The notes under the pieces are model-generated. The model did not search any database. It saw nothing but the letters and a program-made list of their open reading frames with translations, and was not told where the DNA came from. Of a stretch of 64,000 bases of DNA, positions 14,030 through 61,091 are shown piece by piece; position 1 is the first letter of the stretch; each line of letters starts with the position of its first letter. Source of the stretch: Cetorhinus maximus (taxonomy: Eukaryota); contig NC_135901.1 of the NCBI RefSeq assembly GCF_964194155.1, positions 20,584,001 through 20,648,000 on the forward strand. Reading direction: 5' to 3'. A program made the translations under genes and the position numbers.

Positions 14030-14710
14030 TCACCAAGATGGCCGCCCAAGAACCCCCTCATTGAACAAGCCCCGCCTTCCTCTCCCAAGATGGCGGCGGC
14101 CTGTTGCCCGGGTAACCGGATTCTCCTTTGCCTTCACCTATCACTGGCCTCCTATCCAGCTTCACCAGTCCTACCCCACCCTCCCCCCCCTTAAACAGTA
14201 TATATTTCACCAAATTTCTGCTTCTCTTCAGTTCTGAAGAACAGTGATACGGACTCGAAATGTTAACTCTGTCTCTCTCCACAGATGCTGTCAGACCTGC
14301 CGAGTTTTTCCAGCAATTTTTGTTATAATAACCCGGGTCTGTCACTGGGGAGGAAGCCCCGCCTCCCGGATCCGCCCTGTCGCGCAAGATGGCGGCCATT
14401 GAGCCCGCTGTCCCCGGGCCTGTCACCGTGGGGTAAACACGGGGCTTGGGGCCTCAGGCCTACCCTAGAAGTTGATCCAGTTCCCAGTCCAGCCGCGGTT
14501 TCCATTCCTACCCTGTGCTCATAATCTCCTCCTGAACCGTCCGCTCCTCCTCACTCTATCACCATGACTGACACTGAGCATGCTCAGAGCGCACACCCAC
14601 ACTGATCCTGCACACTGGACTCCTATAGTCATTGATAGGGGACCTTCTGAAGCGCGGGCTCTTCTGCGTAAATCAGCCGCCATTGATAGCTTGAATTGCG
14701 GGCAGAGAAT
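14030..14710. promoter_or_regulatory. CpG island, ZNF-2 promoter/first exon
   Basis: Three YY1-type CAAGATGGC motifs (about 14034, 14087, 14385) and the palindrome ctgagcatgctcag at about 14574. Homologous to 30380-30570 and 42590-42960. Confidence 0.75.
14120..14328 (+). mobile_element. Short PLE-tail element with a degenerate hammerhead (14230-14268)
   Basis: agtt-ctgaaga-a-cagtg-atacg-gactc-gaaa-tgtt-aact, then the cagatgctg..cctgc.gagtttttccag tail. Flanked by taacc(c)gg; the paralogous empty site is at 42901-42956 (reverse). Confidence 0.8.
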
Positions 14711-14899
14711 GTAATGTTTCGGCATCCAAATTACGATCAGTTCTAGAGGCACAATACATAAAATAAACACTTTGTTATGTGGAAACCCGGATGTCTGGAC
14801 CCTCCTCCCTGATGCAATCTATGCAATCACCACCACATCCACCCGCAATTTCAGATTGGAAGAAGGTTCAAAGTGGTGATCCAACACCATTATTCATAA

Positions 14900-15830
14900 C
14901 TTACACTACTGCCCGGGACTTGGGAACAATGAAAATATTGGCAGCTGATGCCAAACAGCATTTCTAACACTGAGGAAGAATGCAACGTAATACAAGAAGA
15001 CATTAGAACACCTGCAGACTGGCAAACGTTAAGTGGCAAACGAACTTCAACAACGAAGGGATGAATGGCCGACTCCTGCTCATTGCCCATATGTTCGTGT
15101 AATATGCAATGATATACCTTGGGAGCAAAAATACAAACATTACCTAGACCATAGAGAATAAGAAACTGAATGGAGAAGAAGAGAAATGCAATCTCTGGAA
15201 AGAGATGAATAATGAAAAACGTTATTGCAAGTCAGAAAATCAATTAAAAATGTTCACAAAAGACCCGGATTTATTTCCAGAGGTATCAAATTCAGAAATA
15301 ATTAAATATTGTTCAAATTGCTTAGGACCATGTAGGTATTTCTGCTCTCCATACAATTAAAAAGTCAAATAAGCATTGGAGCTTGTGCACAAAGGATTTT
15401 AAGGATGATATCCTGAGCAATTACAGTTATTGGGAAAAATTAACAGGATAGAGCTTTGTTCTTTAGAAAAGTGAAGGCTTAGAGGTGACCTGCCAGAGGA
15501 TTCTTTAAACTATGAATGGGTTGTACGGGGTAGAAGTGGAGCCAATGTTTCCATGTGGGGGGGAATCAAAAACCAGGACCATATGTACAAGATAGTTCCT
15601 AATAAGACCAACAGGAAAATAAGGAGAAATGTCTTTAATTAGAGAGTAGTTAGAAAGTGAAATTCACTACCACAGGAAGCAGTTGAGGTGAAGTAACTTA
15701 GCTGCTTTCAAAGGAAACTAGATGAGTACATGAGAGAAAGGAGATTAGAAAGAAAAGCTGAAAGGCTGAAGTGAGGGAGATGGAATGGAGTGAGATTCTT
15801 TGAAGATAACCATGAAAACAAATGAGTTGC
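14900..15830 (+). mobile_element. Old degenerate CR1 ORF2 3' region
   Basis: Decayed KLADDAK, aggcttagaggtgacct (RLRGDL) and gagagtagttagaaagtgaaattcactacc motifs. Confidence 0.7.
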
Positions 15831-16132
15831 ATCAAATAGTCTGTTTCCAGACTCGATATTCTCTGTCATTCAATGTCATCTCCTACCAAATCCTGATCAT
15901 CATGTTCCACATCCATCACTTGTACTGCATATGTTCAGAGTACAACCCAGTGCTGAGTAATCACACTGGGCTCTGTAGTCACTGATGGGACATATTCGGC
16001 CACGTGGAAAATTATGGATTGTAACAGTGTCATTGAAAGCCCAAATGGTGAACAGACATTTTTATCAGCAGATCGAGGTTGGGCTAAAAGGCCTGTTACT
16101 GTAATATAATCCTATGTGGCAGAGTTTGACTA

Positions 16133-17833
16133 GTTTGACTGAGTTTGTTCTCACACTGAACAATTTCTCCTTTAACTCCTCTCACTTCCTCCAAATAAAA
16201 GGTGTGGCTATGGGTACCCGCATGGGCCCCAGCTATGCCTGTCTCTTTATGGGGTATGTGGAACATTCCTTGTTCCAGTCCTACTCCGGCCCCCTCCCAC
16301 AACTCTTTCTCCGGTACATCGATGATTACTTCGGTGCTGCTTCATGCTCTCGTCGGGACCTGGAAAAATTTATTAATTTTGCTTCCAATCTCCACCCCTC
16401 CATCATCTTCACATGGTCCATCTCTGACACTTCTCTTCCCTTCCTTGACCTCTCTGTCTCAATTTCTGATGATAGACTGTCCACCAATATCCATTACAAG
16501 CCTACCGACTCCCACAGCTACCTCGACTACAGCTCCTCACACCCCGCTTCCTGTAAAGACTCCATCCCATTCTCTCAGTTCCTTCGCCTCCGTCGCATCT
16601 GTTCTGATGACCTACCTTCAAAAACAGCTCCTCTGACATGTCCTCCTTCTTCCTTAACCGAGGTTTTCCATCCACGGTCGTTGACAGGGCCCTCAACCGT
16701 GTCCGGCCCATATCCCGCGCATCCTCCCTTACGCCTTCTCCTCCTTCCCAGAAACATGATAGGGTCCCCCTTGTCCTCACTTATCACCCCACCAGCCTCT
16801 GCATTCAAAGGATCATCCTCCGCCATTTCCGCCAACTCCAGCATGATGCCACCACCAAACACATCTTCCCTTCACCCCCCTTGACGGCATTCCGTAGGGA
16901 TCGTTCCCTCCGGGACACCCTGGTCCACTCCTCCATCACCCCCTACTCCTCAACCCCCACTTATGGCACCTCCCCATGCCCACGCAGAAGATGCAACACC
17001 TGCCCCTTCACTTCCTCTCTCCTCACCGTCCAAGGGCCCAAACACTCCTTTTAAGTAAAGCAGCATTTCACTTGCATTTCCCCTAACTTAGTCTACTGCA
17101 TTCGTTGCTCCCAATGCGGTCTCCTCTACATTGGAGAGACCAAACGCAAACTGGGCCACCGTTTTGCGGAACACCTGCGGTCTGTCCGCAAGAAAGACCC
17201 AAACCTCCCTGTCGCTTGCCATTTTAACACTCCACCCTGCTCTCTTGCCCACATGTCTGCCCTTGGCTTGCTGCATTGTTCCAGTGAAGCCCAACGCAAA
17301 CTGGAGGAACAGCACCTCATCTTCCGACTAGGCACTTTACAGCCTTCTGGGCTGAATATTGAATTCAACAACTTTAGATCTTAAACCCCCCTCCCCCCAT
17401 CCCCACCCCGTTTCTTTTCCCCCCCCACCCGCCTTTTTTTTTCAATAATTTATATAGATTCTTCTTTCCCCACCTATTTCCATTATTTTTAAATCTAAAA
17501 CTAAAACCTTTAGTCTTTCCACCCCACCCCCACTAGAGCTGTACTTTGAATATCCTGTCTTGCATTCTTAATTAGCACTTTTCTCAGACAAAGACCACCA
17601 CCTTCAACACCTCTATGACCCTTTTGTCTCTGACATCTTTTGATTATCTGCTCACACCACACCCTCAATGTGTCTCTTCCCCCTCACCCACCTTAAACCA
17701 ATTTATATTTCTCCCTTGTTGAAACTATGCTTCAGTTCTGCTGAAGGGCCATGAGGGCTCGAAACGTTGACTGATTTCTTCTCCGCCGATGCTGCCAGAC
17801 TTGCTGAGTTTTTCCAGGTAATTCTGTTTTTAT
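16133..17833 (+). mobile_element. Penelope-like element (Neptune type), 5'-truncated
   Basis: RT motifs GVAMGTRMGPSYA, RYIDD, LPFLD; linker CPRRRCNTC; GIY-YIG region. One frameshift and one stop. Flanked by agagttt(t)gacta at 16121-16132 and 17834-17846. Confidence 0.93.
17732..17774 (+). ncRNA. Minimal hammerhead motif, family A (PLE tail)
   Basis: UCAGUU-CUGCUGA-A-GGGCC(AUGAG)GGCUC-GAAA-CGUU-GACUGA. Stems I and II pair; core position 6 is C instead of A. Confidence 0.7.
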
Positions 17834-17899
17834 AGAGTTTGACTAATGCTCAGGTCTGTACAGCTGCGGCCCATGAGGTGGATTAATACTCAGGCCTAT

Positions 17900-18530
17900 A
17901 AAAACCCACCATCATAAGATCAGTTACCCTCACTACCAACTCCACCCCTCTCCCTGCCACATTCTGAGGCTGGACCAGACCCATTGCAACCTTAGTTTCC
18001 GATCTGACTTTGAGCTGAGGGCTGAGCTACCGATGACATATCCTCTCCATCATGAAGATCACCTCCTTCCACCTCTATATCTGTTGTCTCCATCCCACGC
18101 CAACCCATTTGCTGCTCATCCACATCATTGTTACCTCGAGACTCGACTATTCCACTGCCCTCCTGGCTAGTCTCCCACCTTCCACCCTGCATAAACTTAC
18201 GCTCCTCCAAAACTCTCCTTAGTGGACAGCAATCCAGTGGGGATAGGGTAAATAGAGATGAAGTTGGGTCTCATGAACAAGATGAGCTTGTGAGAAGATA
18301 AGAGGATATGGGAGAGAGACTAAAGAAAAATGTGAGTTCAGGGTTGGGGCTGGTCAGATCTTTAGAGGAAGTTTAGCCCAGTGAACTAATGGAGTGGAGG
18401 GAAGCAGCAGAGGCAGCTGATCAGATTGTCCCAATCTTAGAGACAAAGTAGTCCATAAGCTCTTCAGTTGTCAGAGGTGAGGATGGAGAAAACGGGAGAG
18501 AGGGAACATTTCAAAAGGAACAAACTTGTA
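17900..18530. mobile_element. L2 LINE fragments
   Basis: gttacctcgagactcgactattcc (VTSRLDYS) and ctccaaaactct on the plus strand; 18400-18510 resembles 53210-53335. Confidence 0.7.
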
Positions 18531-18554
18531 TTAGGGATATTTAAATGACTCGTC

Positions 18555-18648
18555 ACTCTGTTTAACAAGAAGTTGATTTATTTGATTTTTATCCAGAATA
18601 TTAACATATATAACTGAGCTAGAGCTTCTTAACATCAGTAGAAACATA
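18555..18648 (-). pseudogene. Orphan copy of the conserved ZNF 3' block
   Basis: gatttatttgatttttatccagaatattaa...ttaacatcagtagaaaca matches 35163-35233 and the reverse of 24312-24400. No fingers are adjacent. Confidence 0.72.
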
Positions 18649-19049
18649 TACCAATGCTATTTTTGTTTTAAGACAAGTGATGGAGAAACATCTGGAAGGT
18701 CAATGCAACATGAGGAATGTAATCATTGATCTACAGAAGACTTATGACCGGATGCCCAGGGAGGAAGTCTGGAGATGTGTTGGAATTCATGGAGTCCCTG
18801 AGGAGCGTGTACGACTATTACAGGACACGTCCAAGGAGTGCCAAGGCAAGAGTAAGAAGCAGTATGGGGGGAGAGAGAGTTTCAACGTCAAAATTGAATT
18901 GTATCAAGGATGGACACTGAACCCCTTCCTCTTCCTGATGGCCACGGTTGATCTAACTGAGCAAGTATAACAGGAAATGCCATGGTCAATTATATTTGCA
19001 GATGACATTGAGCAATGTGTTGAGGATGATGAGAACATGACTGAGTACG

Positions 19050-19953
19050 TAGGGAAGTAAGTTGTGAAGAGGACATAAGGAGTTTACAAAGGGATTTAGT
19101 AAGGTTAAGTGAGTGGGCAACGATCTGGCAAATGGAGTATAATGTGGGAAAATGTGAAATTGTCCATTTTGGCAGGAAGAGTTAAAAAGCATATTATCTA
19201 AATGATGAGAGATTGCAGAGCTCTGAGATGCAGAGAGATCTGGGTGTCCCAGTGCATGAATCGCAAAAGGTTAATAAGCAGGTACAGCAAGCAATTAGGA
19301 AAGCTAATAGAATGTTATTGTTTATTGCGTGGGGAATTGAATACAAAAGTAGGGAGGTTATTGTCCAATTATACAGGGCACTGGTGATATCAAATCTTGA
19401 GTACTGTTTGTAGTATTGGTCTCCTTTTTAAGGAAAGATGTAAATTGAAGCATTACAGATGAGGTTTACTGTACTAATACCAGGAATGGGCAGGTCATCT
19501 TATAAGGAAAGATTGGACAGAGTGACCTTGTATCGGCTGGAGTTTAAAAGAGTAAGAGGTGACTTGATTGAAACATACAGGATCCTGAGAGGTGTTGACA
19601 GGATGGATGTGGAAGGATGTTTTCTCTTGTGGGAGAATCAAAACTAGGGGTCACTGTTTAAAAATAAGGGGTCGCTCATTTAAGTCAAAGATGAGGAGAA
19701 TTTTTTTCTCTTAGAGGGTAGTGAATCTTTGGAACTCTCTTCCTCTAAATGCAGTGGAAGCAGAGTCTTTGAATATGTTTAAGGCAGAGTTAGATTCTTG
19801 ATTAACAAGGGGGTGACAGGTTATCTTGGGGGGCGGGGGGTTGTACGTGGGAATGTGGAGGTGAGGTTACATTCAGATCAGCCATAATCTTATGGAATGG
19901 CACAGCAGGTTCGATGGGCTAAGTGGCCTACTCCTGCCCCTAATTCACATGTT
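19050..19953 (+). mobile_element. CR1 3' fragment nested in the RTE
   Basis: WQMEYNVGKC, QRDLGV, RVRGDLIETY; tail ggcctactcctgcccctaattc. Confidence 0.9.
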
Positions 19954-20009
19954 TGTATCAATATCTGGAGAACTGGAGAAATACACTGGAAGACAGAGGT
20001 ATGACGATT

Positions 20010-20222
20010 AATTTCATTTTTATTCTTTCATGGGATGTGGGAGTCGCTGACAAGACCAGCATTTGTTGCCCATCTCTAATTGCCTTTGAACTGACTGACT
20101 TGCTCGGTCATTGCAGAGGGCAGTTAAGAGTCAACCACATTGCTGTGGGACTGGGGTCACATGTAGGCCAAACTGGGTAAGGACAGCAGATTTCCTTTCC
20201 TAAAGGACATGAGTGAACCAAA
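20010..20222 (-). mobile_element. tRNA-derived SINE, 3' half
   Basis: ttcatgggatgtggg...gtcacatgtaggcc...agatttcct is the reverse of the SINE tail and core. Confidence 0.85.
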
Positions 20223-20245
20223 GACCCAATCTATGGTCCGTCAGA

Positions 20246-20387
20246 AGAGCTCTGAAGAAGGGTCATTCGGACTTGAAACATTAACTCTGTTTCTCTCTCC
20301 ACAGATGCTGCTAGACTTGCTGAGTTTTTCCAGCATTTTCTGTTTTTCTTTTAGATTTCAAACATCCACAGTATTTTGCTTTTATCT
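20246..20387 (+). mobile_element. Short PLE-tail element with hammerhead motif (20246-20288)
   Basis: agagct-ctgaaga-a-gggtc-attcg-gactt-gaaa-catt-aactct followed by the family tail. Confidence 0.8.
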
Positions 20388-21039
20388 ATGGGCTGTCAGT
20401 TCGAGCCTAGGGAAGAGAATCAGAGTGAAGGTGTAAGATTAGGGGCAAAGGCTTGGAAAATGTGAATAGCTTCAAGTACCTGGTTTCAGTGATGGCAGGA
20501 GATGGAAGTATGGAAATTAGGAAATGGATTAGCTCTGGTTGGAGTAATTGGAAGAAGTGCAGTGCAGTGTGATTTGATAGAAAAATGTCACTGAAATTGA
20601 AAAAGAAGAATCTACAGGGCAGTTGTGAGACCGGCCTTGTTACACAGAGCAGAAACTTGGGCAATCTCAAGAAGAGACGAACAATGCCTGGATACTAATG
20701 AGATAGAGATACTGAGATGGATGTGTGGAGTGATAAGAAAGTATAAGATCAGGAACCAGTACATCAGGGGGTCAGTAAAGATTGTGGAAACATTAAAGGA
20801 AGTAGCTGAGAAGAGATTGAAATGGTCTGGTCATCCAGTGTGGAAAGAGAGGAAACGTGGTGAGGCGAGTGATGGACGTGGGACTGTCAGGAAGAAGAGG
20901 AAGGTCTGAGACCAGATGGAAATATGCGGTGGCCAGAGACAGAAATGCAGTGGGATTTGATCCGAATGTTATTCATTGCGATACCCTGCCCCAATCTCTA
21001 CATCACAGCGAAAAATGACTATTCGCTTATTTGATTTTC

Positions 21040-29785: not shown

Positions 29786-30214
29786 AAAAGGAGTTTGCAA
29801 AAGTCATCACTGTCAGTCCAGGACAGAAATTCAGAAAAAACAATTCTATTTTTGATGGAACATTTTTTCCTCTCTTGTTCCCCCAAAGCTGTAAATTCCC
29901 GTCCCACACACTCTCCCTCCTCCCAGGGCTGAAATCCAAACCCATCTCACCATTTGTTTCCTCCACTCCCATTTCTCCCTCTCTCTCCTCTGCCTGGGTT
30001 CAGTTCTCCAGCTCCTGTCTGCAGACTGACAATAAAATCAATGAGTCTTATTGGGGGTTTGGGGCCTCCAGCGGGTGTTTCTGAATCCTCCCCGCCCACC
30101 TCCCAGGGTTTCCTTCCTTCCCACAGATCAGATCCTCATCGATTTGAGCCCAAAGTGTAACCTCTTATTTATTGTCCCCCCTCCCCCATCCTCTGATGTG
30201 AACCATCCTCCACT

Positions 30215-30700
30215 CGCTGACCCAGGATGGCGGCCGTTAACCTGGGCCTGTTCCCGGGAGGGAGAAGCCCCGCAGCTGCAAACCAGGAGCTGACAATTAT
30301 TCCTCAGGGTTTGCGGATCCACAAAGTGTTTCCAAATCCTCCCCGTCCAGCCGCCGGCTCCATCGCTCCCTCCCCCCGGGCCTGTCACCGCGGGGTAAAC
30401 ACGGGGCCTGGGGCCTACCCCAGAAGTTGATCCAGTTCCCAATCCAGCCACGGTTTCCATTCCTACCCTGTGCTCACAATCTCCTCCCGCCTCCCGAACC
30501 GTCCGCTCCTCCTCACTCTGTCACCATGACTGACACTGAGCATGCTCAGAACGCACACCCACACTGCACCTGCGCACTGGGAACGGGTTCAACGGCCTCT
30601 GCCATCTTGGGAGAGGAAGGCGGGTCTTGTTCAGGGAGCAGAGCGCATGGGTGGCCATCTTGGTGAGGGAATGGGGACTGAGGGCGGGGCTTCCTCCATG
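30215..30700. promoter_or_regulatory. CpG island, ZNF-4 promoter/first exon
   Basis: GATGGCGGCC, two GCCATCTTGG, ctgagcatgctcag, tgcacctgcgca and a GC box. Confidence 0.75.
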
Positions 30701-31109
30701 GTCATGTTGGGGTTTATTTAAATCTAACAGCTTTTCTTTACATAAAAGAACCCAGGAATTTTGGTGAAAAGCAGAAAAATCCCAGCTATCACCATGGCTT
30801 TGTCATTCTCTCACTCACCGGCAAGGCCATATCTCTTTGCTTCCTTGTGTCCCTCACATTCCCTGTCCTTTTGTATCCACTCAGAAAAACTCTACCTAAG
30901 TCACTTACAGCAACTCTTTCAAACTCACAATGGTCTCGCCATTGGCCATCTATTTGTCACAATACTTCTACAACTGGTGATCTGCTCAAGTCACTCCCAC
31001 AACCTCTGATGCCTTTGCCCTCAGTTAAACCCAAACTCTCTCCTACCCCTTATCACTCTCCCATCTTTTCTTCTTCAAGTCCAAGGAACACAGAACATAC
31101 AACCAAAAC

Positions 31110-32728
31110 ACTGTGGATGCTGGAAATCTGAAATAAAAACAGAAAATGCTGGAAAAACTCAACAGGTCTGACGGCATCTTTTTTTAAAATTCATTCATGG
31201 GATGTGAGCTTCGCTGGCTGGGCCAGCATTTATTGCCCATCCCTAGTTGCCCTTGAGATGGTGCTGGTCGGCTGCCTCCTTGAACCACTGCAGTCCATCT
31301 GGTATAGGTACACCCACATTGTTGTTAGGAAGGGAGATCCAGGATTTTGACCCAGCAACAGTGAAGGAATGATATATTTCCAAGTCATGATGGTGAGTGA
31401 CTTGGAGGGGAGCATCCAGGTGGTGGTGTTCTTATCTATCTGCTGCCCTTTGTTCTTCCAGATGGTCGTGGTATAGGGTTTGGAAGGTGCTCTCTAAGGA
31501 GCCTTGGTGAGTTCCTGCAGTGCATCTTGTAGATGGTACACACTGCTGCTACTGTGCATCTCTGCTGAAAGGAGTAAATGTTTGTGGATGTGGAGCCAAT
31601 CAAGCAGGCCACTTTGTCCTGGATGGTGTCAAGCTTCTTGAGTGTTGTGGGAGCTGCACTCATCCAGGCAAGTGGGGAGTATTCCATCACGCTCTTGACT
31701 TGTGCCTTTAGATGGTGGACAGGCTTTGGGGAGTCTGGAGGTGGGTTACTCATCGCACGATTTCTAGCCTCTGACCTGCTCTTGCCACCACGGTATTTAT
31801 ATGGTTAGTCCAGTTCAGTTCATGGTCAATGGTCACCCCTAAGGTGTTGATAGCGGGGGATTCAGTTATGGTAATGCCATTGAACATCAAGGGGCGACGG
31901 TTGGATTCTCTCTTGTTGGAGATAGTCATTGCCTGGCATTTGTGTGGCACGAATGTTACTTGCCACTTGTCAGCCCAAGCCTGGATATTGTCCAGGTCTT
32001 GCTGCATTTGGACATGGACTGCTTCAGTATCTGAGAAGTTGCGAATGGTGCTAAACATTATGCAATCATCAGCGAACATCTCCAATTCTGACCTTATGAT
32101 GGAAGGTAGGTCATTGATGAAGCAGCTGAAGATGGTTGGGCTGAGGACGCTCCACCGAGGAACTCCTGCGGTGATGTCCTGGAGCTGAATGACTGACCTC
32201 CAACAAGCACAGCCATCTTCCTTTGTGCTAGGTGTGACTCCAACCGGTGAAGAATTTTCCCCCGATTCCCATTGACTCCAGTTTTTCTCGGGCTCCTTGA
32301 TGCCACACTCTGTCAAATACTGCCTTGATGTCAAGGTCAGTCATGCTCACCTCACTTCTGGAGTTCAGCTCTTTTGTCCATGTATGAACCCAGGCTGTAA
32401 TGAGGTCAGGAGCTGAGTGGCCCTGGCGGAACCCAAACTGAGTGTCAGTGAGCAGGTTATTGCTAAGCAAGTGCTGCTTGATAGCACTGTTGATAACCCC
32501 TTCCATTACTTTACTGATGATCGAGAGTTGACTGATGGGCTGGTAATTGGCCCGGTTGGATTTGACCTGCTTTTTGTGTACAGGACATACCTGGGCAATT
32601 TTCCACATAGCTGGGTAGATGCCAGTGTTGTAGCTGTACTGGAGCAGCTTGGCTAGGGGCATGGCAAGTTTTGTGGAGAGAGAAACAGAGTTCAAGATTT
32701 GAGTCAGTATGACTCTTCTTCAGAGCTC
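31110..32728 (-). mobile_element. Short PLE-tail element split in two (31110-31178 and 32673-32728), degenerate hammerhead at 32688-32728
   Basis: Removing 31179-32672 rejoins ...ggtctgacggcatct|gtggagagagaaacagagtt..., as in the intact copies. Confidence 0.8.
31178..32672 (-). mobile_element. CR1-group LINE (RT and 3' tail); probable partner of the tRNA SINE
   Basis: WKIAQVCPVHKK, QFGFRQGHS, DIKAVFDRVWH, GVPRWSVLSP, MFADD. Tail gggcaataaatgctggcc..cccatgaatgaat is shared with the SINEs. Confidence 0.9.
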
Positions 32729-32735
32729 AATCCCT

Positions 32736-34384
32736 CATCACGACTGTGTTGCCCTTTACCCCGACCATCCCCAAGTCCCACTCACGCATCACAACTGTGC
32801 TGCCCTTTACCCCGACCATCCCCAAGTCCCACTCACGCATCACGACTGTGCTGCCCTTTACCCCGAAAGTCCCCAAGTCCCACTCATGCATCATGACTGT
32901 GCTGCCCTTTGCCCCGACCATCCCCAAGTCCCACTCACGCATCACGACTGTGCTGCCCTTTACCCCGACCATCCCCAAGTCCCACTCACGCATCACGACT
33001 ATGCTGCCCTTTACCCCGACCATCCCCAAGTCCCACTCACGCATCACGACTGTGCTGCCCTTTACCCTGACCATCCCCAAGTCCCACTCACGCATCACGA
33101 CTGTGCTGCCCTTTACCCCGACCGTCCCCAAGTCCCACTCACGCATCACGACTGTGCTGCCCTTTCCCCCGAACGTCCCCAAGTCCCACTCAAGCATCAC
33201 GACTGTGCTGCCCTTTACCCCGATCGTCCCCAAGTCCCAATCATGCATCAAGACTGTGCTGCCCTTTACCCCGACCGTCCCCAAGTCCCACTCACGCATC
33301 ACGACCGTGCTGCCCTTTACCCCGAACGTCCCCAAGTCCCACTCACGCATCACGACCGTGCTGCCCTTTACCCCGAACGTCCCCAAGTCCCACTCACGCA
33401 TCACGACCGTGCTGCCCTTTACCCCGAACGTCCCCAAGTCCCACTCACGCATCACGACCGTGCTGCCCTTTACCCCGAACGTCCCCAAGTCCCACTCACG
33501 CATCACGACCGTGCTGCCCTTTACCCCGAACGTCCCCAAGTCCCACTCACGCATCACGACCGTGCTGCCCTTTACCCCGAACGTCCCCAAGTCCCACTCA
33601 CGCATCACGACCGTGCTGCCCTTTACCCCGAACGTCCCCAAGTCCCACTCACGCATCACGACCGTGCTGCCCTTTACCCCGAACGTCCCCAAGTCCCACT
33701 CACGCATCACGACCGTGCTGCCCTTTACCCCGAACGTCCCCAAGTCCCACTCACGCATCACGACCGTGCTGCCCTTTACCCCGAACGTCCCCAAGTCCCA
33801 CTCACGCATCACGACTGTGCTGCCCTTTACCCCGAACGTCCCCAAGTCCCATTCAAGCATCACGACTGTGCTGACCTTTACCCCGACCGTCCCCAAGTCC
33901 CACTCACGCGTCACGACTGTGCTGCCCTTTACCCCGACCGTCCCCAAGTCCCACTCACGCGTCACGACCGTGCTGCCCTTTACCCCGAACGTCCCCAAGT
34001 CCCACTCACGCGTCACGACTGTGCTGCCCTTTACCCCGAACGTCCCCAAGTCCCACTCACGCGTCACGACTGTGCTGCCCTTTACCCCGACCGTCCCCAA
34101 GTCCCACTCACGCGTCACGACTGTGCTGCCCTTTACCCCGACCGTCCCCAAGTCCCACTCAAGCATCAAGACTGTGCTGCCCTGTGCCCCGACCGTCCCC
34201 CAAGTCCCACTCCCCCATCACGACTGTGCTGTCCTTTACCCCGACCATCCCCAAGTCCCACTCACGCATCACGACTGTGCTGCCCTTTACGCCGAACATC
34301 CCCAAGTCCCACTCACGCATCAAGACTGTGCTGCCCTTTACCCCGACCGTCCCCAAGTCCCACTCCCCCAACATGACTGTGCTC
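32736..34384. repeat. 51-bp minisatellite, about 32 copies
   Basis: Unit catcacgactgtgctgccctttaccccgaccatccccaagtcccactcacg, with about 10 identical units in the centre. Confidence 0.98.
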
Positions 34385-34815
34385 ACTGACCTACAAAGGC
34401 TCCAGCTCCACCAATGCCTCCATTTTCAAATTCTAATCTCCTGTTCAAATCCCTTCAGTTCCACACCCCCTGCCGATGTCTGTAACATTCTCCAACCGTA
34501 CAACCCTCAGAGAGCTCTGTATCCCGCCATCTCAGGCCTCTTACACATCCCTCACTCTCTCTGTCCCATTGGCCATGCCTTCAGTCATCGGCCTTAACCC
34601 TGGACTTCCTTCCCTATCCCTCTCTGCCGGTCCACAGCTCTACCCCTTTAAGAGCCTCTTAAACATATATATCTTTTACTAAGCCTTTAGTTAGCCCTCT
34701 TAATGTCCTCTTCTTTGGCTCAGTGTCAGGTTTTGTCTGATTTGTCAGTTTATGCTTCTGAGATTCACCATGAGACATCACACCCTAAAGGTGTGATGTA
34801 AAGGAAAGTTATTTT
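34360..34815 (+). mobile_element. L2 LINE 3' end
   Basis: VLTDLQRLQLHQCLHFQIL..CNILQPYNPQRAL..SGLLHIP..IGHAFS matches the L2 ORF2 end (VL..LHWLP...R..FKIL...P.R.LRS...G.RAFS). Confidence 0.82.
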
Positions 34816-38444: not shown

Positions 38445-40346
38445 AAAAACAAAAAACTACTGCGGATGCTGGAAATCCAAAACAAAAACAGAATTACCTG
38501 GAAAAACTCAGCAGGTCTGGCAGCATCGGCGGAGAAGAAAAGAGTTGACGTTTCGAGTCCTCATGACCCTTTAACAGAACTAAGTAAAAATAGGAGAGGG
38601 GTGAAATATAAGCTGGTTGAAGGTGGGTGTGGAGAGAAGTTGGTGGGGGGGGGTGGTGGTTGTAGGGACAAGCAAGCAGTGATAGGAGCAGATAATCAAA
38701 AGATGTCACAGATAAAGGAACAAAGAGGTGTTGAAGGTGGTGATGTTATCTAAGAGAATGTGCTAATTAAGAATGGATGGCAGGGCACTCAAGGTGCAGC
38801 TCTAGTGGGGGTGGGGTGGAAAGACTGACAGAGCATTACAGGTATAGATTTAAAAATAATGGAAATAGGTGGGAAAAGAAAAATCTATATAAATTATTGG
38901 AAAAAACAAAAGGGAGGGGGAAGAAAAGGAAAGGGGGTGGGGATGGACGAGGGAGTTCAAGATCTAAAGTTGTTGAATTCAATATTCAGTCCAGAAGGTT
39001 GTAAAGTGCCTAGTCGGAAGATGAGGTGCTGTTCCTCCAGTTTGCGTTGGGCTTCACTGGAACAATGCAGCAAGCCAAGGACAGACATGTTGGCAAGAGA
39101 GCAGGGTGGAGTGTTAAAATGGCAAGCGACAGGGAGGTTTGGGTCTTTCTTGCGGACAGACCGCAGGTGTTCTGCAAAGCGGTCACCCAGTTTACGTTTG
39201 GTCTCTCCAATGTAGAGGAGACCGCATTGGGAGCAATGAATGCAGTAGACTAAGTTAGGGGAAATGCAAGTGAAATGTTGCTTCACTTGAAAGGAGTGTT
39301 TGGGCCCTTGGACGGTGAGGAGAGAGGAAGTGAAGGGGCAGGTGTTGCATCTTCTGCGTGGGCATGGGGAGGTACCATAGGTGAGAGTTGAGGAGTAGGG
39401 GGTGATGGAGGAGTGGACCAGGGTTGCCCAGAGGGAACGATCCCTATGGAATGCCACCAGGGGGGGTGAAGGGAAGATGTGTTTGGTGGTGGCATCATGC
39501 TGGAGTTGGCGGAAATGGCGGAGGATGATCCTTTGAATGCGGAGGCTGGTGGGGTGATAAGTGAGGACAAGGGGGACCCTAGCATGTTTCTGGGAGGGAG
39601 GAGAAGGCATGAGGGCGGATGTGCGGGAGATGGGCCGGACACCTTTGAGGGCCCTGTCAACGACCGTCGGTGGAAAACCTCGGTTAAGGAAGGAGGATGA
39701 CATGTCAGAGGAACTGTTTTTGAAGGTAGCATCAACAGAACAGATGCGACGGAGGCGAAGGAACTGAGAGAATGGGATGGAGTCCTTACAGGAAGCGGGG
39801 TGTGAGGAGCTGTAGTCGTGGTAGCTGTGGGAGTCGGTAGGCTTGTAATGGATATTGGTGGACAGTCTATCACCAGAAATTGAGACAGAGCGGTCAAGGA
39901 AGGGAAGGGAAGTTTCAGAGATGGACCATGTGAAAATGATGGAGGGGTGGAGATTGGAAGCAAAATTAATAAATTTTTCCAGGTCCCTACGAGAGCATGA
40001 AGCAGCACCGAAGTAATCGTCGATGTACCGGAGAAAGAGTTGTGGGAGGGGGCCGGAGTAGGACTGGTACAAGGAATGTTCCACATACCCCATAAAGAGA
40101 CAGGCATAGCTGGGGCCCATGCGGGTACCCATAGCCACACCTTTTATTTGGAGGAAGTGAGAGGATTTTAAAGAGAAATTGTTCAGTGTGAGAACAAGTT
40201 CAGCCACACGAAGGAGAGTAGTGGTGGATGGGGATTGTTCGGGCCTCTGTTCAAGGAAGAAGCTAAGGGCCCTCAGACCATCTTGGTGGGGGATGGAGAT
40301 GTAGAGGGATTGGACATCCATGGTGAAGAGGAAGCGGTTGGGGCCA
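38445..40346 (-). mobile_element. Penelope-like element (Neptune type), left arm of palindrome; RT plus GIY-YIG frame open to the stop at 38957
   Basis: MDVQSLY, GVAMGTRMGPSYA, RYIDD, CPRRRCNTC, LVYCIHCSQCGLLYIGET..R..EH, HFN, GLN. Confidence 0.95.
38543..38581 (-). ncRNA. Minimal hammerhead motif, family A (left arm), G8 mutated
   Basis: AGUU-CUGUUAA-A-GGGUC(AUGAG)GACUC-GAAA-CGUC-AACU. Confidence 0.62.
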
Positions 40347-42257
40347 ATTTCCAGTTCCCTGGCCCCAACCGCTTCCTCTTCACCATGGATGTCCAATCCC
40401 TCTACATCTCCATCCCCCACCAAGATGGTCTGAGGGCCCTTAGCTTCTTCCTTGAACAGAGGCCCGAACAATCCCCATCCACCACTACTCTCCTTCGTGT
40501 GGCTGAACTTGTTCTCACACTGAACAATTTCTCCTTAAACTCCTCTCACTTCCTCCAAATAAAAGGTGTGGCTATGGGTACACGCATGGGCCCCAGCTAT
40601 GCCTGTCTCTTTATGGGGTATGTGGAACATTCCTTGTTCCAGTCCTACTCCGGCCCCCTCCCACAACTCTTTCTCCGGTACATCGATGATTACTTTGGTG
40701 CTGCTTCATGCTCTCGTCGGGACCTGGAAAAATTTGTTAATTTTGCTTCCAATCTCCATCATTTTCACATGGTCCATCTCTGACACTTCCCTTCCCTTCC
40801 TTGACCTCTCTGTCTCAATTTCTGATGATAGACTGTCCACCAATATCCATTACAAGCCTACCGACTCCCACAGCTACCTCGACTACAGCTCCTCACACCC
40901 CGCTTCCTGTAAGGACTCCATCCCATTCTCTCAGTTCCTTCGCCTCCGTCACATCTGTTCTGATGATGCTACCTTCAAAAACAGTTCCTCTGACTTGTCC
41001 TCCTTCTTCCTTAACCGAGATTTTCCACCCACGGCCGTTGACAGGGCCCTCAACCGTGTCCGGCCCATCTCCTGCGCATCTGCCCATACGCCTTCTCCTC
41101 CCTCCCGGAAACATGATAGGGTCACCCTTGTCCTCACTTATCACCCCACCAGCCTCCGCATTCAAAGGATCATCCTCCGCCATTTCCGCCAACTCCAGCA
41201 TGATGCCACCACCAAACACATCTTCCCTTCACCCCCCTGGCGTCATTCCGTAGGGATCGTTCCCTCCGGGACACCTTGGTCCACTCTCCATCACCCCCTA
41301 CTCCTCAACCCCCACCTATGGCACCTCCCCATGCCCACGCAGAAGATACAACACCTGCCCCTTCACTTCCTCTCTCCTCACCGTCCAAGGGCCAAACACT
41401 CCTTTAAAGTGAAGCAACATTTCACTTGCATTTCCACTAACTTAGTCTACTGCATTCATTGCTCCCAATGCGGTCTCCTCTACATTGGAGAGACCAAAGG
41501 TAAACCGGGCGACCACTTTGCAGAACACCTGCGGTCTGTCCGCAAGAAAGACCCAAACCTCCTGTCGCTTGCCATTTTAACACTCCACCCTGCTCTCTTG
41601 CCAACATGTCTGTCCTTGGCTTGCTGCATTGTTCCAGTGAAGCCCAACGCAAACTGGAGGAACAGCACCTCATCTCCCGACTAGGCACTTTACAGCCTTC
41701 CGGACTGAATACTGAATTCAACAACTTTAGATCTTGAACTCCCTCGTCCATCCCCACCCCCTTTCCGTTTCTCCCCCCTCCCTTTTGTTTTTTCCAATAA
41801 TTTACATAGATTTTTCTTTTCCCACCTATTTCCATTATTTTTAAATCTATACCTGTAATGCTCTGTCAGTCTTTCCACCCCACCCCCACTAGAGCTGCAC
41901 CTTGAGTGTCCTGCCATCCATTTTTAATTAGCACATTCTCTTAGATAATATCACCACCTTCAACAGCTCTTTGTTCCTTTATCTGTGACATCTTTTGATT
42001 ATCTGCTCCTATCACTGCTTGCTTGTCCCTAAAACCACCCCCCCTCCCAACTTCTCTCCCCCAACCCCCCCCCCCTCCCCACCTTAAACCAGCTTATATT
42101 TCACTCCTCCTATTTTTACTTAGTTCTGTTGAAGGGTCATGAGGACTCGAAACGTCAACTCTTTTCTTCTCCGCCGATGCTGCCAGACCTGCTGAGTTTT
42201 TCCAGGTATTTCTGTTTTTGTTTTGGATTTCCAGCATCCGCGGTTTTTTGTTTTTGT
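40346..42257 (+). mobile_element. Penelope-like element, right arm of palindrome (frameshifted)
   Basis: Reverse complement of the left arm with several small deletions. Confidence 0.95.
42122..42160 (+). ncRNA. Minimal hammerhead motif, family A (right arm)
   Basis: AGUU-CUGUUGA-A-GGGUC(AUGAG)GACUC-GAAA-CGUC-AACU; palindromic ACGU stem III; predicted cleavage after GUC (C42156). Confidence 0.75.
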
Positions 42258-42419
42258 TCTTATTGGGGGTTTGGGGCCTCCAGCGGGTGTTTCTGAATCC
42301 TCCCCGCCCACCTCCCAGGGTTTGCTTCCTTCCCACTGATCAGATTCCTCATTGGTTTGAGCCCAAAGTGTAACCTCTTATTTATTGTCCCCCCTCCCCC
42401 ATCCTCTGATGTGAACCAT

Positions 42420-42965
42420 CCTCCACTCGCTGACCCAGGATGGCGGCCGTTAACCTGGGCCTGTTCCCGGGAGGGAGAAGCCCCGCAGCTGCAAACCAGG
42501 AGCTGACAATTATTCCTCAGGGTTTGCGGATCCACAAAGTGTTTCCAAATTCTCCCCGTCCTGCCGCCGGCTCCATCGCTCCCTCCCCCCGGGCCTGTCA
42601 CCGCGGGGTAAACACGGGGCCTGGGGCCTACCCCAGAAGTTGATCCAGTTCCTAGTCCAGCCTCGGTTTCCATTCCTACCCTGTGCTCACTATCTCCTCC
42701 CGCCTCCCGAACCGTCCGCTCCTCCTCACTGTCACCATGACTGACACTGAGCATGCTCAGAGCGCACACCCACACTGCACCTGCGCACTGGGAACGGGAT
42801 CACCGGCCTCTGCCATCTTGGGAGAGGAAAGCGGGTCTTGCTCAGGGTGCCGGGCGCATGGGTGGCCATCTTGGTGGGGGAAGAGAGGAGTGAGGACGGG
42901 GCTACCTCCCCGGTGACAGGTCCAGGTTACCCGGGCAACCGGCCGCCGCCATCTTGCACTGACGT
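42420..42965. promoter_or_regulatory. CpG island between divergent ZNF-5 and ZNF-6; candidate bidirectional promoter
   Basis: YY1-type motifs face outwards on both sides (GATGGCGGCC at about 42439; GCCATCTTG at about 42812, 42865, 42948) around ctgagcatgctcag. Confidence 0.72.
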
Positions 42966-43101
42966 TTTTCCATCCGGGTCTTTAGTGAAGGAATGGACAA
43001 TGAGCTGGAGTCAGTTTGAAAGCTGTTCAGAGGAAGGTCTGAAATCAGATTTACATCCAGATACCTGTAAGGACAATAAAGTTTACATCAATTATGTGTT
43101 T

Positions 43102-43263
43102 AAAATGAAATCAGAATGCTGGAAATACTCAGTTCTGAAGAACAATCATATTGGATTGGAAATGTTAAATCTGTTTCTCTCTCTTCACAGAAGCTGCCGA
43201 ACCTGCTGAGGATTTCCAGAACTTTCTGTTTTTATTTCAGATTTCCAGCATTCACAGTATTTT
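43102..43263 (+). mobile_element. Short PLE-tail element with hammerhead motif (43131-43170) and a short inverted tail at its 5' end
   Basis: cagaatgctggaaatactcag (inverted tail) is fused to agtt-ctgaaga-a-caatc-atattg-gattg-gaaa-tgtt-aaat. Confidence 0.78.
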
Positions 43264-43559
43264 ACTAAAATGATGTTTCTTTGCAATTTTGTTGCATAAC
43301 TAGTTAAGAGTAAAATAATTGTTACAATTTAAATATACAAATCAGTGATATTTATTTGTGTAACTGAGACTCGGCTGTTAAGGAACAATGTTAGAAATCA
43401 CTTCACAGAAAATATGGCGGAAATCTGAAATTCTGTTGAGGTTTCATCAGTTAACAATTTAAAAACTGAGATTGCTGGACATTTATGAGGCAAGAGTAGT
43501 GAGGGTTATGGAATCAAGGCATGTGGATGGATTTAATGTAGAAATCAGGCATCTACCTG

Positions 43560-53975: not shown

Positions 53976-55138
<1,163 letters not shown>

Positions 55139-55744
55139 TGAAATCAATTTAAAACAGAAAAAAAGGAGTGAGAGAGACCCCACACAAACACAAAGACAGG
55201 TTGTGAAACTGAGCTGAAAGAATCTGGTAATTTGTGGGGCCGGCACCAGGAAAAAGTGACCATGAAAACTGCTGGATTGTCACAGAAACCCAACTGGTTC
55301 ACTGATATCCTTCAGGGAAGGGAACCTGTCACCCAGTCTGGGCCTACACAAGACTCTAGCCTCCATGTGGAGAGGAGAGTGAGAGAGGATTGGGATCCGA
55401 AGCAGAGGAGGAGAGGGATTTTCTATTTCTGCAACTTGACCAGAAATTTGACAGACTTTCTAAAACACTCCACCTCCACCACCTAGAGGAACAGGGTAAC
55501 AGGTGTATATGAACAGCATCACCTCCAATCTCCCCTCCAAGTCACACTCTGTCCTGACTTGACTGACATCCAGTACTGGATGAACACAAATTTCCTCCAT
55601 TTAAACATTGCCTTCAGTCCCCACTACCAACCCTAGACACTGACTCCAGCCCTCTGCTTGACAACAGTCTGAGTGTGAAACATCAGTATCATATTTGACC
55701 CCGAGACAAGCTCCCAACCACATATTGGCATCATCGTCAACACT

Positions 55745-58700
55745 TAAATGCCTTTTACCCGCACTATTCCCATAACCCTTTACATTATTGTTAATTAGAA
55801 ATCCATCAATCTCTACCTTAAACATACTCAGAGCTTCCACAGCCCCCTGGGGTAGAGAATTCCAAAAATTCACAACCGTCTGAGTAAAGAAATTTCTCCT
55901 CATCTCAGTCCTCAGTGGCTTACTTTGAAATTGTGTCCCTTAGTACTAGACTCCCCAACCAGGGGACACATCTTACCTGCATCTACCCTGTCTTATTTCT
56001 TTAAGTATTTTGTAGGTTTCAATGAGATCACCTCTCATTTTTTGAAACTGTAGAGAATACAGGCCCATTTTCTCCAAGGTCTCCTTATAAGACAGTCCTG
56101 TCATCCCCGGAACAAGTCTGGTGAACCGTTGTTGCATTCCCTCTATGGCAATAATATCCTTTCTGAGGTAAGGGGTCAAAACTGCACACACTGCTCCAGA
56201 GGCAGTCTAACCAAGCTTCTATATAAGTGAAGCAAGACTTCACTACTCCTGTACTCAAATCCTATTGCGATAAAGGCTAACATTCCATGAGCTGCATCTG
56301 CATGTTAGCTTTCAGTGACTTATGGACAAGGACACCCAGGTCCCTTTGTGCATCTACACTTTCTAAACTCTTACCATTTAGGAAATGCTCTACACATCTG
56401 TTCCTTCTACCAAAGTGGATAACCTCACATTTTTCCACATTATATTCCATCTGCCATGTCCTTGCCCACTCAGTCTGTCCAAATCCTTTTTTTTTGTTCG
56501 TTCATGGGATGTGGGCATCACTGGCCAGGCCAGCGTTCATTGCCCATCCCTAATTGCCCTAGTTCAGAGGGTATTTACGAGTCAATCACATTGTGGGGTC
56601 TGGAGTCACATGTAGACCAGTTAAAGATGGCAGATTTCCTTCCCTAAAGGGGCATTAGTGAACTAGATGGGTCTTTACAACATTCAACAATGGTTTCATC
56701 ATTTAGGCATTTAATTCCAGATTTTAAGTGAATTCAAATTCTCCCATCTGCCATGGCCGGATTCAAACCCAGGTCCCCAGAGCTTACCTGGGGTCTCTGG
56801 ATTACTAGTCCAACGACAATACCACGATGCCATCACCTCCCCTTGTAGCCACTTCACATCTTCCCCACAACACACATTCCCGCCTAGGTTTGTATCATCC
56901 ATGAACTTGGAAATATTACATTTGGTCCCCACATCCAAATCATTGACGTATTGTGAACAGCTGGGGCCCAAGTATTGATCCTTGAGGCCACGAGTCACAG
57001 CTTGCCAACACGAGAAAGACCTGCTTATTCCTGCTCTCTGTTTTCTGCCTGTTAGCCAATCCTTAATCCATGCCAGTATATTGCCTCTTATCCCATTTGC
57101 TTTTATTTTGCTAATCAACCTCCTGTGGGGGCACTTTATCAAAAGCCTTCTGAAAATCCAAGTACACCATGTCCATCGACTCTCCTTTACCAATTTTGTT
57201 TGTAACATCCTCAAAAAGCTCCAACAAGTTTGTCAAACATGATTTCCCATTTGCAAATCCATGCTGACTATGCCCAATCAGATCATGATTATCCAAGTAT
57301 CCATTTATCACACCCTTTACAATGGATTCTAGCATTTTCCTTACTACTGATGTAAGGCTAACAGGTCTGTAGTTCCCTGTTTTCTTTCTCCCTCCCTTCT
57401 TAAATAGTGGGGTGAAATTTGCTACCTTCTAATCTTCAGGAACCATTTCAGAATCTATAGAATTTTGGAAAATGATCACCAGTGTATCCACTATCTCTAT
57501 AGCAACCTCTTTCAACCCTCTGGGGTGCAGAATATCAGATCCCGGGAATTTATCAACTTTCACTCCCATTAAATTCTTCAATACAACCTTCTTACTTATA
57601 CTAAGTTCCTTCAACTCCTCATTTTCCCTAGTCCCTTGGATCTCTAAATCTGGGAGATTCCCTTTACCTTCCTGTGAAAACAGACACAAACTAATCATTT
57701 AGATTCTCTGCAATTTCTCTATTCCCCATTATGAATTCTCCTGACTCTGCCTGTAATGGACCCACATTTGTCTTAGCCAAATGCTTCCTTTTTACATCCC
57801 TACAGAAGCTTTTATAGTCCACTTTTATATTTTTTGCTGGATTGCATTCAAATTCTATTCTCTCTTTCCTTACTAGTTTCTTGGTCTTCCTTTGCTGTAT
57901 TCTAAAAACCTCCCAAACCTCAGGTTTACTACTACTTCTGCCAACATTATAAGCCTTTTCGTTTAGTCTTATGCAATCCTTAACTTCCTTTGTCAGCCAC
58001 GGTTGACTGACTTTTTGGGTTTTTGCACCTTGAATGAATGTATAGGTGCTGTAAGCTATGTAATAGTTCTTTGAAGCCTATCCATTGCCTATGTACAGAC
58101 ACATTTTAATGTATTTTCCCAATCCATCTCAGCCAATTTGTCCCTCACTCCTTCATAATTTCCTTTGTTCAACTTTAACACCCTTGCTTCAGAGTGAATT
58201 ACCTCACTTTCAAACATAATGTGAAATTCTATCATATTGTGGTCACTCATCCCTAAAGGATCTTTTACAAGATTATTAATTAGCCTCTTTTCATTACATA
58301 ATACCAAATCTAAAATATCCTGCCCTCTAGTCAGTTCCTTAATACACTGCTCGAGAAAACCATCCCTAACACATTCCAGAAACTCATCTTCCACAGCTTT
58401 AGTGCTCAATTGGTTTACCCGGTCTTTATGCAGATTGAAGTCATCCATGATTACTGCATTGCCCACGCTACATGCTTCTCTCACCCCTGATTAATACCAT
58501 GCCCCACATTACCACCACTGTTTGGTGGCTGATAAACAACTCCAATCAATGTCTAATGCCCTTTGCTGTTTCTTAGCTCCACTCAAACAAATTCCATGTA
58601 TTGTTCTTCCGATCTGAGATCCACCCTTACTAATGCACTGATTCCATCTCTTATTATCGGCGTAAGTCCACCTCCTTTCCCTTCTTGTCTGTCCTTCCTA

Positions 58701-59815
58701 AATGTCGAATATTCTTGAATATTCATGTCCCAGCCTTGGTCACCATGCAGCCATGTTTCTGTAATGGTGATTATATCATACTCATTCACCTCTATTTGTG
58801 CCTTCAGATCATCTACCTTACTGCAAATGCTGCGCGCATTCAGGTGGAGTGCCCTTAACTTTGTCTTTTTGACATAATTTCATATTCAAAGCATACTCAA
58901 AGCTCTGTTATTTCTTTTGCTTTATGGTCTCAATACTACTTCCTGTTACCAACTTTACTTTCTTCCAATTTGGACTACCCCCCCGACAAGCTTGTTTAAA
59001 CCCATGCGAACAGCACTAGCAATTCTCCCTGCAAGTATATCAGTCCCAGTCCTGTTAAGATGTAATCTGTCCAGCTTGTACAGGTCCAACCTGCCCCAGA
59101 AATGGTCCCAATGCCTCAGAAATCTGATGCCCTCCCTCCTACACCAGTTCTCCAGCCACGTATTTAATCGATCAATCCTCCTATTCCCATGCTCAGTAGC
59201 ATGTGGCACTGGGCGTAATCCTGAGATTACTGCTCTTGAGCTCCTGCTTTTTAATTTGCTCCCTAACTCCTTGAAATCTACTTTCAGGACCTCACCCCTC
59301 TTCATACTTATGTTGTTGGTATCATTGTGGACCATGACTTCCGGCTGATCCCCCTCCCCCCGAAGGATATCTGCAGCCACTCTGTGACATCCTTCACCCT
59401 GGCACCAGGGAGGCAACACACCATCCCCGAGGCACGTTTCTGCCACAGAAACACGTGTCTGATCCCCTGATTATGAAATCCCCTATCACTATTGCCCTTC
59501 CATTCTTCTTCCTCCCCACCCCCCGTACAGCTGAATCGCCTGTGGTGCCACAGGCTTGGCTCTGGCTGCACTCCTGAGAAACTATCGCCCTTATCAGCAT
59601 TCAAAATGGAAAACCAATTAGCAAGCAGGTTAGACTCAGAGGCTCCTGCACTACCTGCCTGGTTCTCTTAGACTGCCTGGTGGTCACCCATTCCCTCTCT
59701 GGCTGTACGTTTCTGATCTGCGGTGTGACTACCTCCCTAAATGTGCTTTCCACGTAGTCCTCTGCCTTGCAGGTGCACAACAGTGACTCCAGCCGCCACT
59801 CAAGTTCTGAAACCC
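55745..59815 (-). mobile_element. Near full-length decayed CR1 (ORF1 SGNH esterase, APE, RT)
   Basis: AIVIGDFIIRG, CCLPGARV, WCRREGIRFL..DRLHLN; ITETWL, DFN, SDHN; QHGF..KSCLTNLL. Confidence 0.92.
56488..56842 (-). mobile_element. tRNA-derived SINE nested in the CR1
   Basis: Reverse head, core and tail of the SINE family. Confidence 0.88.
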
Positions 59816-59819
59816 AGAA

Positions 59820-59955
59820 ATTCAGACAATGTAAATATTTTTCTTGGTTTGCGTTTACTGTGTGTGAATCCTCCCCTTCTAACCCCCTGTAAAAGGAGTT
59901 TCCAAAATCTATCCCTGTCAGTCCATGATGGAAATTCATAACATTCTCTTCTCGT
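59820..59955 (-). pseudogene. Extra copy of the ZNF acceptor/leader module
   Basis: Minus strand aactccttttacagGGGGTTAGAAGGGGAGGATT..CAAACCAA matches the start of every ZNF exon here. Confidence 0.78.
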
Positions 59956-60294
59956 GCTTCCTGGCCCAGGATGATCGCGTAAGCGCCCTGCTGCACATTG
60001 CCTTTTGTGGTCATTAGCAGTCCCTCGATTTGAGGATGATGTCTACTCAGGGTCATGAGTTTCTGCAATGGGTCTTCATGTCGCTGAACAGAGATGTGGG
60101 TGTTTGGACACATGAGGCAGAAGAACCCATGAGGTATTGGGATCAGAAGAGCAGGATTTGCTTCCTTTTCTTGCCTTCTGTGCACCGCACTGCCTCATCA
60201 ATAAGAGACTGGGATTTAAAGGGTAATGCAGGTTGATGGTCAAGTTGTCGCCATTCTGAACTATGGGGAACAAACTTTTCCCAATCATTAAAAA

Positions 60295-60660
60295 CATTGC
60301 CCCCTACAAAGATGGCGGCCGTACATGCGCCTGCTGCACGTTGCCCCCAATAAAGATGGCGACCCGGTCACTGGAAGTTGTGGCCTCGCTCCATGCAAAC
60401 GGGGGACCGATAAGATGTTTTTCTGGGTTTGGGCTTGCCCAACATGTTTACGAAGCCTCCCCGCCCACCCGCTGGATCCATCGCTCTCTCCGTCCCGCCA
60501 TCTCCCTCTTACCGATTGCGGATCTGACAAGAGTCTCTGCATCACCATTACCTGCACTATGCATGCTTCAGTCACAGCCCGGCCCCGCCCCTCGTTCACT
60601 CCGATTGGTTGGAGAACCAACCACCCCTGCGCGGTCCTCCAACCCCACCCCTTCTGATTG
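60295..60660. promoter_or_regulatory. CpG island, probable ZNF-7 promoter
   Basis: YY1-type AAGATGGCG at about 60309 and 60353, GC box ggccccgcccc at 60581, reverse CCAAT at about 60604. Confidence 0.72.
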
Positions 60661-60882
60661 ATACAAGCTTTTCAGAGATCTTGGGATTCACCTCAAATCG
60701 TTCCAGGGTGTTGCCCTTAAAGGGTAAATACACATCGTATTTTCATATAATTCTCTGCATCCAGATCTTTTTAAGCAAGCCTCGGAAATTAGGTAATAAT
60801 GAGTTGTTGCCCAGATTTAAAGTGATTTGCAAAAGAAGCAAATATGACGTGAGAAAAAACTTTTTCACACAACGAGTGGTTT

Positions 60883-61091
60883 GCTGGAAATCTGAAATAA
60901 AAACAGAAAATGCTGGAAAACTCAGCAGATCTGGCAACATCTGTGGAGCGAGAAACAGAGTTAACATTTAAAGTCCATATGACTTCTTAAGCTTTGAAGA
61001 AGAGTCATACGGACTCAAACGTTAACTCGATTTCTTTCTCCACAGATGCTGCCAGAGCTGTTGAGTTTTACCAACATTTTCTGTTTTTATT
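60883..61091. mobile_element. Miniature tails-out palindrome of two short PLE-tail elements, each with a decayed hammerhead
   Basis: Inverted arms of about 95 bp around aagctt (60989-60994). The plus arm reads agct-ttgaaga-a-gagtc-atacg-gactc-aaa-cgtt-aact. Confidence 0.85.

Follow-up and report, generated by a model that had tools for sequence, protein, structure and literature searches.

The 64,000-nucleotide stretch of Cetorhinus maximus DNA analyzed here (NC_135901.1, positions 20,584,001 to 20,648,000; called the window below, and the frame of all coordinates) carries hammerhead ribozyme motifs both at the 3' ends of Penelope-like elements (PLEs) and in short copies without an open reading frame (ORF), which raises the question of whether the short copies are a ribozyme-headed retroelement of their own and what fixes the point at which they begin. 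A preliminary description of the window had listed nine such motifs, termed family A, which we took as our starting list. Most of what we found is known biology, as the ribozyme, the insertion layout and non-autonomous PLE derivatives are already in print (also PMC7229834 and PMC6765202; published work is cited throughout from excerpts of the papers named). One testable detail stands apart: 5' ends pile up at the edge of stem I and not at the ribozyme cut site. Each wave of the autonomous PLE gave rise to short copies as by-products.

Positions relative to the motif are counted from +1, the base following the opening AG of stem I. Among 30 young copies taken in genome order, four had their start at positions -4 to -1, and the span from -5 to -140 held no start at all. 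Starts were then counted genome-wide with exact patterns, in which a 17-base anchor was combined with non-reference letters 5 and 7 bases upstream. Edge starts made up 662 of 10,884 young copies (6.1%), compared with 16 of 4,077 (0.39%) for a matched control anchor 24 bases upstream and 73 of 11,545 (0.63%) for an anchor at the cut site; these percentages are floors, because fewer than half of true ends get through the filter, and the subfamilies caught vary somewhat from anchor to anchor. In an older subfamily, which has no matched control, 1,598 of 15,080 copies were edge starts through a stricter filter, and a rough correction (random DNA passes about one time in five) raises this to about half of the copies. 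Ends at the cut site are near background, and the pile-up is found instead at the stem I edge, give or take about three bases, so that the beginning at stem I previously noticed in several short copies is seen across the genome. The edge ends are spread over three bases, with G before the anchor in 74 of 100 listed junctions and AG in 43 (by eye). Among 128 copies from randomly chosen genome stretches, 41 had an upstream pseudo-long terminal repeat (pLTR), 27 were single edge starts, 16 were inverted joints at the edge and 44 began inside or after the motif; three of these assignments are hand corrections, and old copies without a sampled relative may be misplaced in the edge class. No published description of an edge pile-up without a cut-site peak was found in the main-text excerpts searched. 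Read in this way, the insertions derive from uncut RNA, with between a tenth and a half of them ending at the opening bases of the ribozyme.

A shared start is what would be expected of an independent, non-autonomous, ribozyme-headed short retroelement with source copies of its own, mobilized in trans by the PLE, as had been proposed from the sequence of the window. The high copy number, the 43 of 128 random copies at the edge and the corrected estimate of roughly half in the older subfamily are in its favor, and non-autonomous PLE derivatives do exist (PMC8557442; bioRxiv 10.64898/2026.07.22.740005). The tree of copies, however, gives the short ones neither a clade nor private variants: the nearest neighbor is a long copy for 23 of 34 edge copies, edge neighbors number 11 against 15.6 expected at random, and label changes number 21 against 24.5 after shuffling, at least 9 of them forced by well-supported branches of a tree that rests on 102 columns and is poorly resolved. 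Short and long copies are mixed in every subfamily and in each of the four core classes; short copies also occur in the youngest subfamily, where they are 95-100% identical to the full unit; and they share PLE tails, target duplications and the head-to-head layout with long copies. With no lineage of its own, no upstream TATA-like box in the short copies and no excess of ends at the cut site, the separate element is unsupported and, in our judgment, distinctly improbable.

If the short copies are by-products of the autonomous PLE, what sets their end? The probable answer is that the reverse transcriptase (RT) reaches the 5' end of an uncut RNA beginning at stem I and there runs off its template. 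Transcription would start at stem I, driven by a TATA-like box 30 bases upstream, and the protein would nick both target strands and prime two cDNAs. Reverse transcription would initiate internally, at sites in the tail 100-150 bases further on, and if it did so at the copy of the tail site nearest the 5' end it would have just 100-150 bases to copy before running off the RNA; the resulting short copies, being promoterless, would be dead ends. A TATA-like word does start at -32 to -27 in 28 of the 39 copies that retain upstream sequence, and in 0-1 copies in five other position ranges. Of 10 single short copies, 6 have a target duplication lying 0-5 bases from the edge (an eleventh record in this set is a long copy of another subfamily), so that, where this can be judged, their sequence includes no upstream exon. 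A TATA box and an initiator have been proposed in a rotifer PLE pLTR (PMC3846280), and for an anole PLE initiation has been shown at two internal sites that match the tail, together with extension of both strands and use of uncut RNA as the main substrate (PMC11167929). From these observations, we infer a transcription start at stem I.

Several points weigh against this reading. The TATA word was picked after inspection of the data, the copies are related, and one divergent subfamily has only an A-run at this place. Four of the 10 single short copies have no target duplication, and in three of the six that do it measures only 7-8 bases. Inverted pairs make up about 70 of the 100 listed edge junctions, with some entered twice, and short self-complementary words can draw such joints to the edge. 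No excess of an extra G, as copying of a cap could leave, is seen, with GG in 13 of 74 G-ending junctions (by eye). The 22 RNA runs listed are all assembled contigs and for the most part only presumed to be RNA; the four compared with the element cover it and hold no usable start, strand or splice joint. Finally, the sequence upstream of stem I is also pyrimidine-rich and ends in YAG, the Drosophila Penelope promoter is TATA-less (PMC2377424), and its leader intron ends at helix I (PMC4209133). A cap-derived extra G had been suggested by 9 of 26 random edge copies, an idea that was dropped when the larger list showed no excess.

The main rival to a transcription start is an end set by the fold of the ribozyme and not by a promoter, either through a 5'-to-3' exonuclease that trims to stem I or through an RT that releases on leaving the folded or dimerized motif. 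Such an end would agree with a peak at a structural edge in both subfamilies tested, with the missing cap-G excess and with the 44 of 128 random copies that start within the motif or just past it. On the other hand, a TATA-like box lies at promoter distance, stem I is weak, with one pair broken in 22 of 66 copies, and an RT usually stalls on entering a helix, at its 3' side; we regard a fold-set end as rather unlikely. Another possibility is that the AG at the start of stem I acts as a splice acceptor and the short copies stem from spliced RNA, as in Penelope of Drosophila virilis, in which an intron ends at helix I (PMC4209133). The pyrimidine-rich upstream sequence with its terminal YAG would suit an acceptor, as would an A at -10, which is kept in 35 of 44 rows within the pyrimidine-rich stretch and resembles a branch point in some subfamilies only. 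Yet, apart from the inverted arm of the element itself, the 100 listed junctions share no recurrent upstream exon, 6 of the 10 single copies have target DNA directly against the edge, and no donor was found within 300 bases upstream in the full unit; we judge splicing very unlikely.

Least probable of all is a retrozyme-like cycle, in which self-cleavage of dimers would free unit RNAs or circles that are then copied into the genome. While the dimer model (PMC4209133) agrees with the core and with the ACGU palindrome, and retrozymes derive from PLE ends (bioRxiv 10.64898/2026.07.22.740005), cut-site ends are near background (the 73 of 11,545 given above), copies span both sides of the cut, and the nine window motifs stand singly or head to head, with no short head-to-tail arrays; we consider this cycle extremely unlikely. 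One further reading, which we hold to be improbable, is that the hammerhead is not a cutter during insertion; it would cap the very 5' end of the transcript and pair two RNAs through the ACGU palindrome. A protein dimer would then prime both target strands, giving head-to-head insertions, and hundreds of thousands of strong-stop-like cDNAs would record the RNA start at base resolution. Hammerhead-less Naiad elements, which also yield inverted, tailed insertions (PMC8557442), speak against such RNA pairing. On the role of the PLE hammerhead, a question raised in print (PMC8557442, PMC11167929), this genome offers a large natural read-out. If the edge is a transcription start, a strong-stop-like product of the PLE would account for the abundance of solitary minimal hammerheads in fish-type genomes, with no need for a separate short interspersed nuclear element.

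The motif itself is, by its sequence, the already published minimal type I hammerhead of PLE pLTRs. Of 72 full motifs, 67 were aligned; four were excluded for large indels and one as an identical sister arm, a choice that favors pairing. Column counts over the 67 copies show the core (C3-A9, G12-A14, A15.1-U16.1 and H17) and the CG palindrome, and the extra base following A9, described earlier, is found in the aligned copies. Pairing in stem II stands at 92%, and four of its five pairs show double changes; its doubly changed cells number 28 against 11 in shuffled alignments (0/500) in a set of copies that are relatives, while pair counts and pair-type counts fall within the shuffles (62/500 and 147/500). 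Stem I shows almost no covariation, and the broken pair mentioned above is a C-A mismatch or another. The stem II covariation noted earlier is seen here in modest form. Residue 6 is A in 33, U in 20 and C in 7 of the 67 copies, the changed forms being the younger subfamilies; a natural A6C hammerhead variant that prefers Mn2+ is known (PMC7151607). As anticipated, most copies are decayed: even with A6 disregarded, the core is intact in 23 of 67 aligned copies, and among the nine window motifs an intact core with the ACGU palindrome is found in two only, 17732 and 42122 (two minus-strand copies were judged by eye). Two-strand folding gave an active dimer for none of the nine window copies, with stem II formed in most, and an Rfam scan of the window returned 15 matches at E<=5, none of them to a hammerhead family.

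An initial DNA search was skewed, as 19 of 30 loci shared flanks with the copy at 20246 and are duplications of one insertion, and therefore stretches totaling 1.4 Mb were sampled at random from 35 places in the 3.99-Gb genome, with reversed sequence as control. A profile built from eight window motifs matched 10 times in the window, 128 times in the random sample and 0 times in the reversed control, so the motifs are not chance; extrapolation gives about 360,000 copies genome-wide. A search of the genome for RT/GIY-YIG frames yielded 147,882 candidates, of which 82 were scored, many in open frames of 920-931 codons, and twenty loci with such frames were inspected. The best cases among these twenty show a head-to-tail tandem unit of 3,292 bp with a 924-codon RT and GIY-YIG frame. 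In this unit the motif lies 350 bases past the stop of one ORF and about 190 before the next ATG, and is therefore part of a pLTR made of one unit's 3' end and the next unit's 5' leader. The protein (917 amino acids from the first Met) matches RVT_1 (E=6e-7) and GIY-YIG (E=4e-4, below the curated cut-off), and carries the motifs DKG, YIDD and VY..YIGET; the linker between RT and endonuclease (EN) holds a CX4CXXC motif, CPRRRCNTC, at residue 783. Since a CX2-5CxxC zinc-finger linker marks the Neptune or Nematis clade (PMC8557442), and Neptune and Poseidon were the only PLEs found in a vertebrate survey that takes in one cartilaginous fish (bioRxiv 10.64898/2026.07.22.740005), the parent is assigned, on linker motif and survey, as an EN+ PLE of Neptune type. 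The earlier placement of a minimal hammerhead in the terminal repeat of such an element is borne out by the anatomy of the unit and the core columns. At five loci (L104-L108), tandem units are 99.8-100% identical with their 924-codon frames open, which suggests very recent activity; the young subfamily with changed A6, whose copies are near-identical and have intact ORFs, offers a ready system for tests. Young subfamilies also carry a splice-donor-like CAG/GTAAT 82 bases past the motif start (L104:7930-7945, minus strand), which older subfamilies are without; no convincing acceptor for it was seen before the ATG.

In the window, all nine motifs were found with the layout and stem II pairs described; minus-strand starts had to be corrected to 32727, 38581 and about 60988. 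The nine represent seven insertions, because 38543/42122 and 60960/60990 are each one head-to-head insertion, and the tenth profile match, 31179(-), belongs to the 32688 copy, of which it forms the 3' half. On the plus strand, a 5'-truncated PLE 3' end of about 200 bp (14130..14328) starts about 100 bases upstream of stem I and has an upstream pLTR, a decayed hammerhead from 14230 and no tail. The 1.7-kb copy at 16133..17831 (+), also 5'-truncated and tailless, belongs to the youngest subfamily, with 98.8% identity to the full unit in L104, a 12-bp target duplication and a hammerhead from 17734 in which A6 is changed to C; its TATA-like box, a putative promoter, lies at 17704..17710 (+), 30 bases 5' of the base that opens stem I. 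The 140-bp tailed copy at 20246..20385 (+) starts at the stem I edge and is abutted at both ends by its target duplication; the stretch around it is repeated many times on this contig, and together with its flanks it is found at 18 or more further places (L002-L013, L015-L018 and L021, most of them on contig C24), which suggests either that this zinc-finger cluster was segmentally duplicated or that a larger repeat is present.

The remaining insertions include a short, edge-starting copy at 31097..32727 (-), split into pieces 32727-32672 and 31179-31097 by a 1,492-bp, RT-bearing insertion resembling a long interspersed nuclear element; about 32 copies of a 51-bp tandem repeat (32728-34400) adjoin it, the first exactly at its 5' edge. 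A head-to-head pair of 1.9-kb PLE 3' arms, 94.5% alike, occupies 38445..42255 on both strands, with its junction at 40346-40360, an RT and GIY-YIG frame at 38957-40534(-), hammerheads from 38581(-) and 42122(+) in which A6 is changed to U, a tail on both arms and an imperfect target duplication of 11-13 bp. A duplicated stretch (30046-30432 and 42258-42645, 99% identical) directly adjoins the right end of this pair. The tailed, edge-starting copy at 43100..43266 (+), with its motif from 43131, has ahead of it a 33-bp inverted segment that comes from the 3' part of the element itself, and the head-to-head short arms at 60882..61092 (both strands) are joined at the stem I AGCT palindrome, with a tail on the left arm and none on the right. 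The surroundings are a cluster of C2H2 zinc-finger genes on both strands (4447-54845), with 84-bp repeats and a zf-C2H2 match in 7 of 7 frames tested, and a 34-bp minisatellite of about 19 copies lies at 9421-10104.

Copies end about 100 or about 150 bases past the motif start. Among loosely defined head-to-head pairs in the random sample (motifs within 4 kb, some of them chance neighbors), a tail was found on one arm in 31 of 43 and on both in 1, with 11 unclassified. Outer ends carry a duplication of at least 13 bases in 15 of 18 distinct inverted insertions, and typical target duplications are 13-15 bp. The published PLE layout (PMC8557442, PMC3846280), with partial tandems forming pLTRs, an inverted 5'-truncated arm and a tail at one end, is what we observe, and it agrees with the pair of internal initiation sites and the two-strand extension of the anole PLE (PMC11167929).

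Protein searches gave nearest named matches from a bamboo shark (65-69% identity) and invertebrate relatives at 50%, and comparison with characterized systems places the element close to published ones. Non-LTR retrozymes (PMC7229834; bioRxiv 10.64898/2026.07.22.740005) are likewise non-coding, hammerhead-bearing and derived from PLE ends; they form head-to-tail arrays with mostly canonical hammerheads and cut-site processing, unlike the copies here, which are single or head to head and show no cut-site peak. The complex insertions of EN+ PLEs (PMC8557442, PMC3846280) and the anole Poseidon (PMC11167929) are alike in the tandem unit, head-to-head arms, optional tail of about 35-50 bases, two 3' end points and target duplications, although the last measure 13-15 bp here and 8-10 bp in rotifer PLEs (PMC8557442, PMC3846280); a sharply defined 5' end where stem I begins, seen here, was not met in the excerpts describing those insertions. 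Dimeric PLE hammerheads have been described (Lunse et al. 2017, via PMC6765202), and the closest likeness is to the minimal type I hammerheads of PLE pLTRs (PMC4209133), which occur in fish Neptune elements and share the extra base A9/10.1, G10.1-C11.1, a short helix I, a palindromic 15.2-16.2 and the absence of loop 3. In contrast to those, helix II has 5 bp here and 7-8 bp in the Schistosoma example, A6 is U or C in young subfamilies, and 5' end positions are mapped, a mapping not met in the excerpt of that paper. The same work reports thousands of lone dispersed copies from truncated PLEs, 4,000-9,000 in coelacanth and frog, against about 360,000 estimated here by a different search method.

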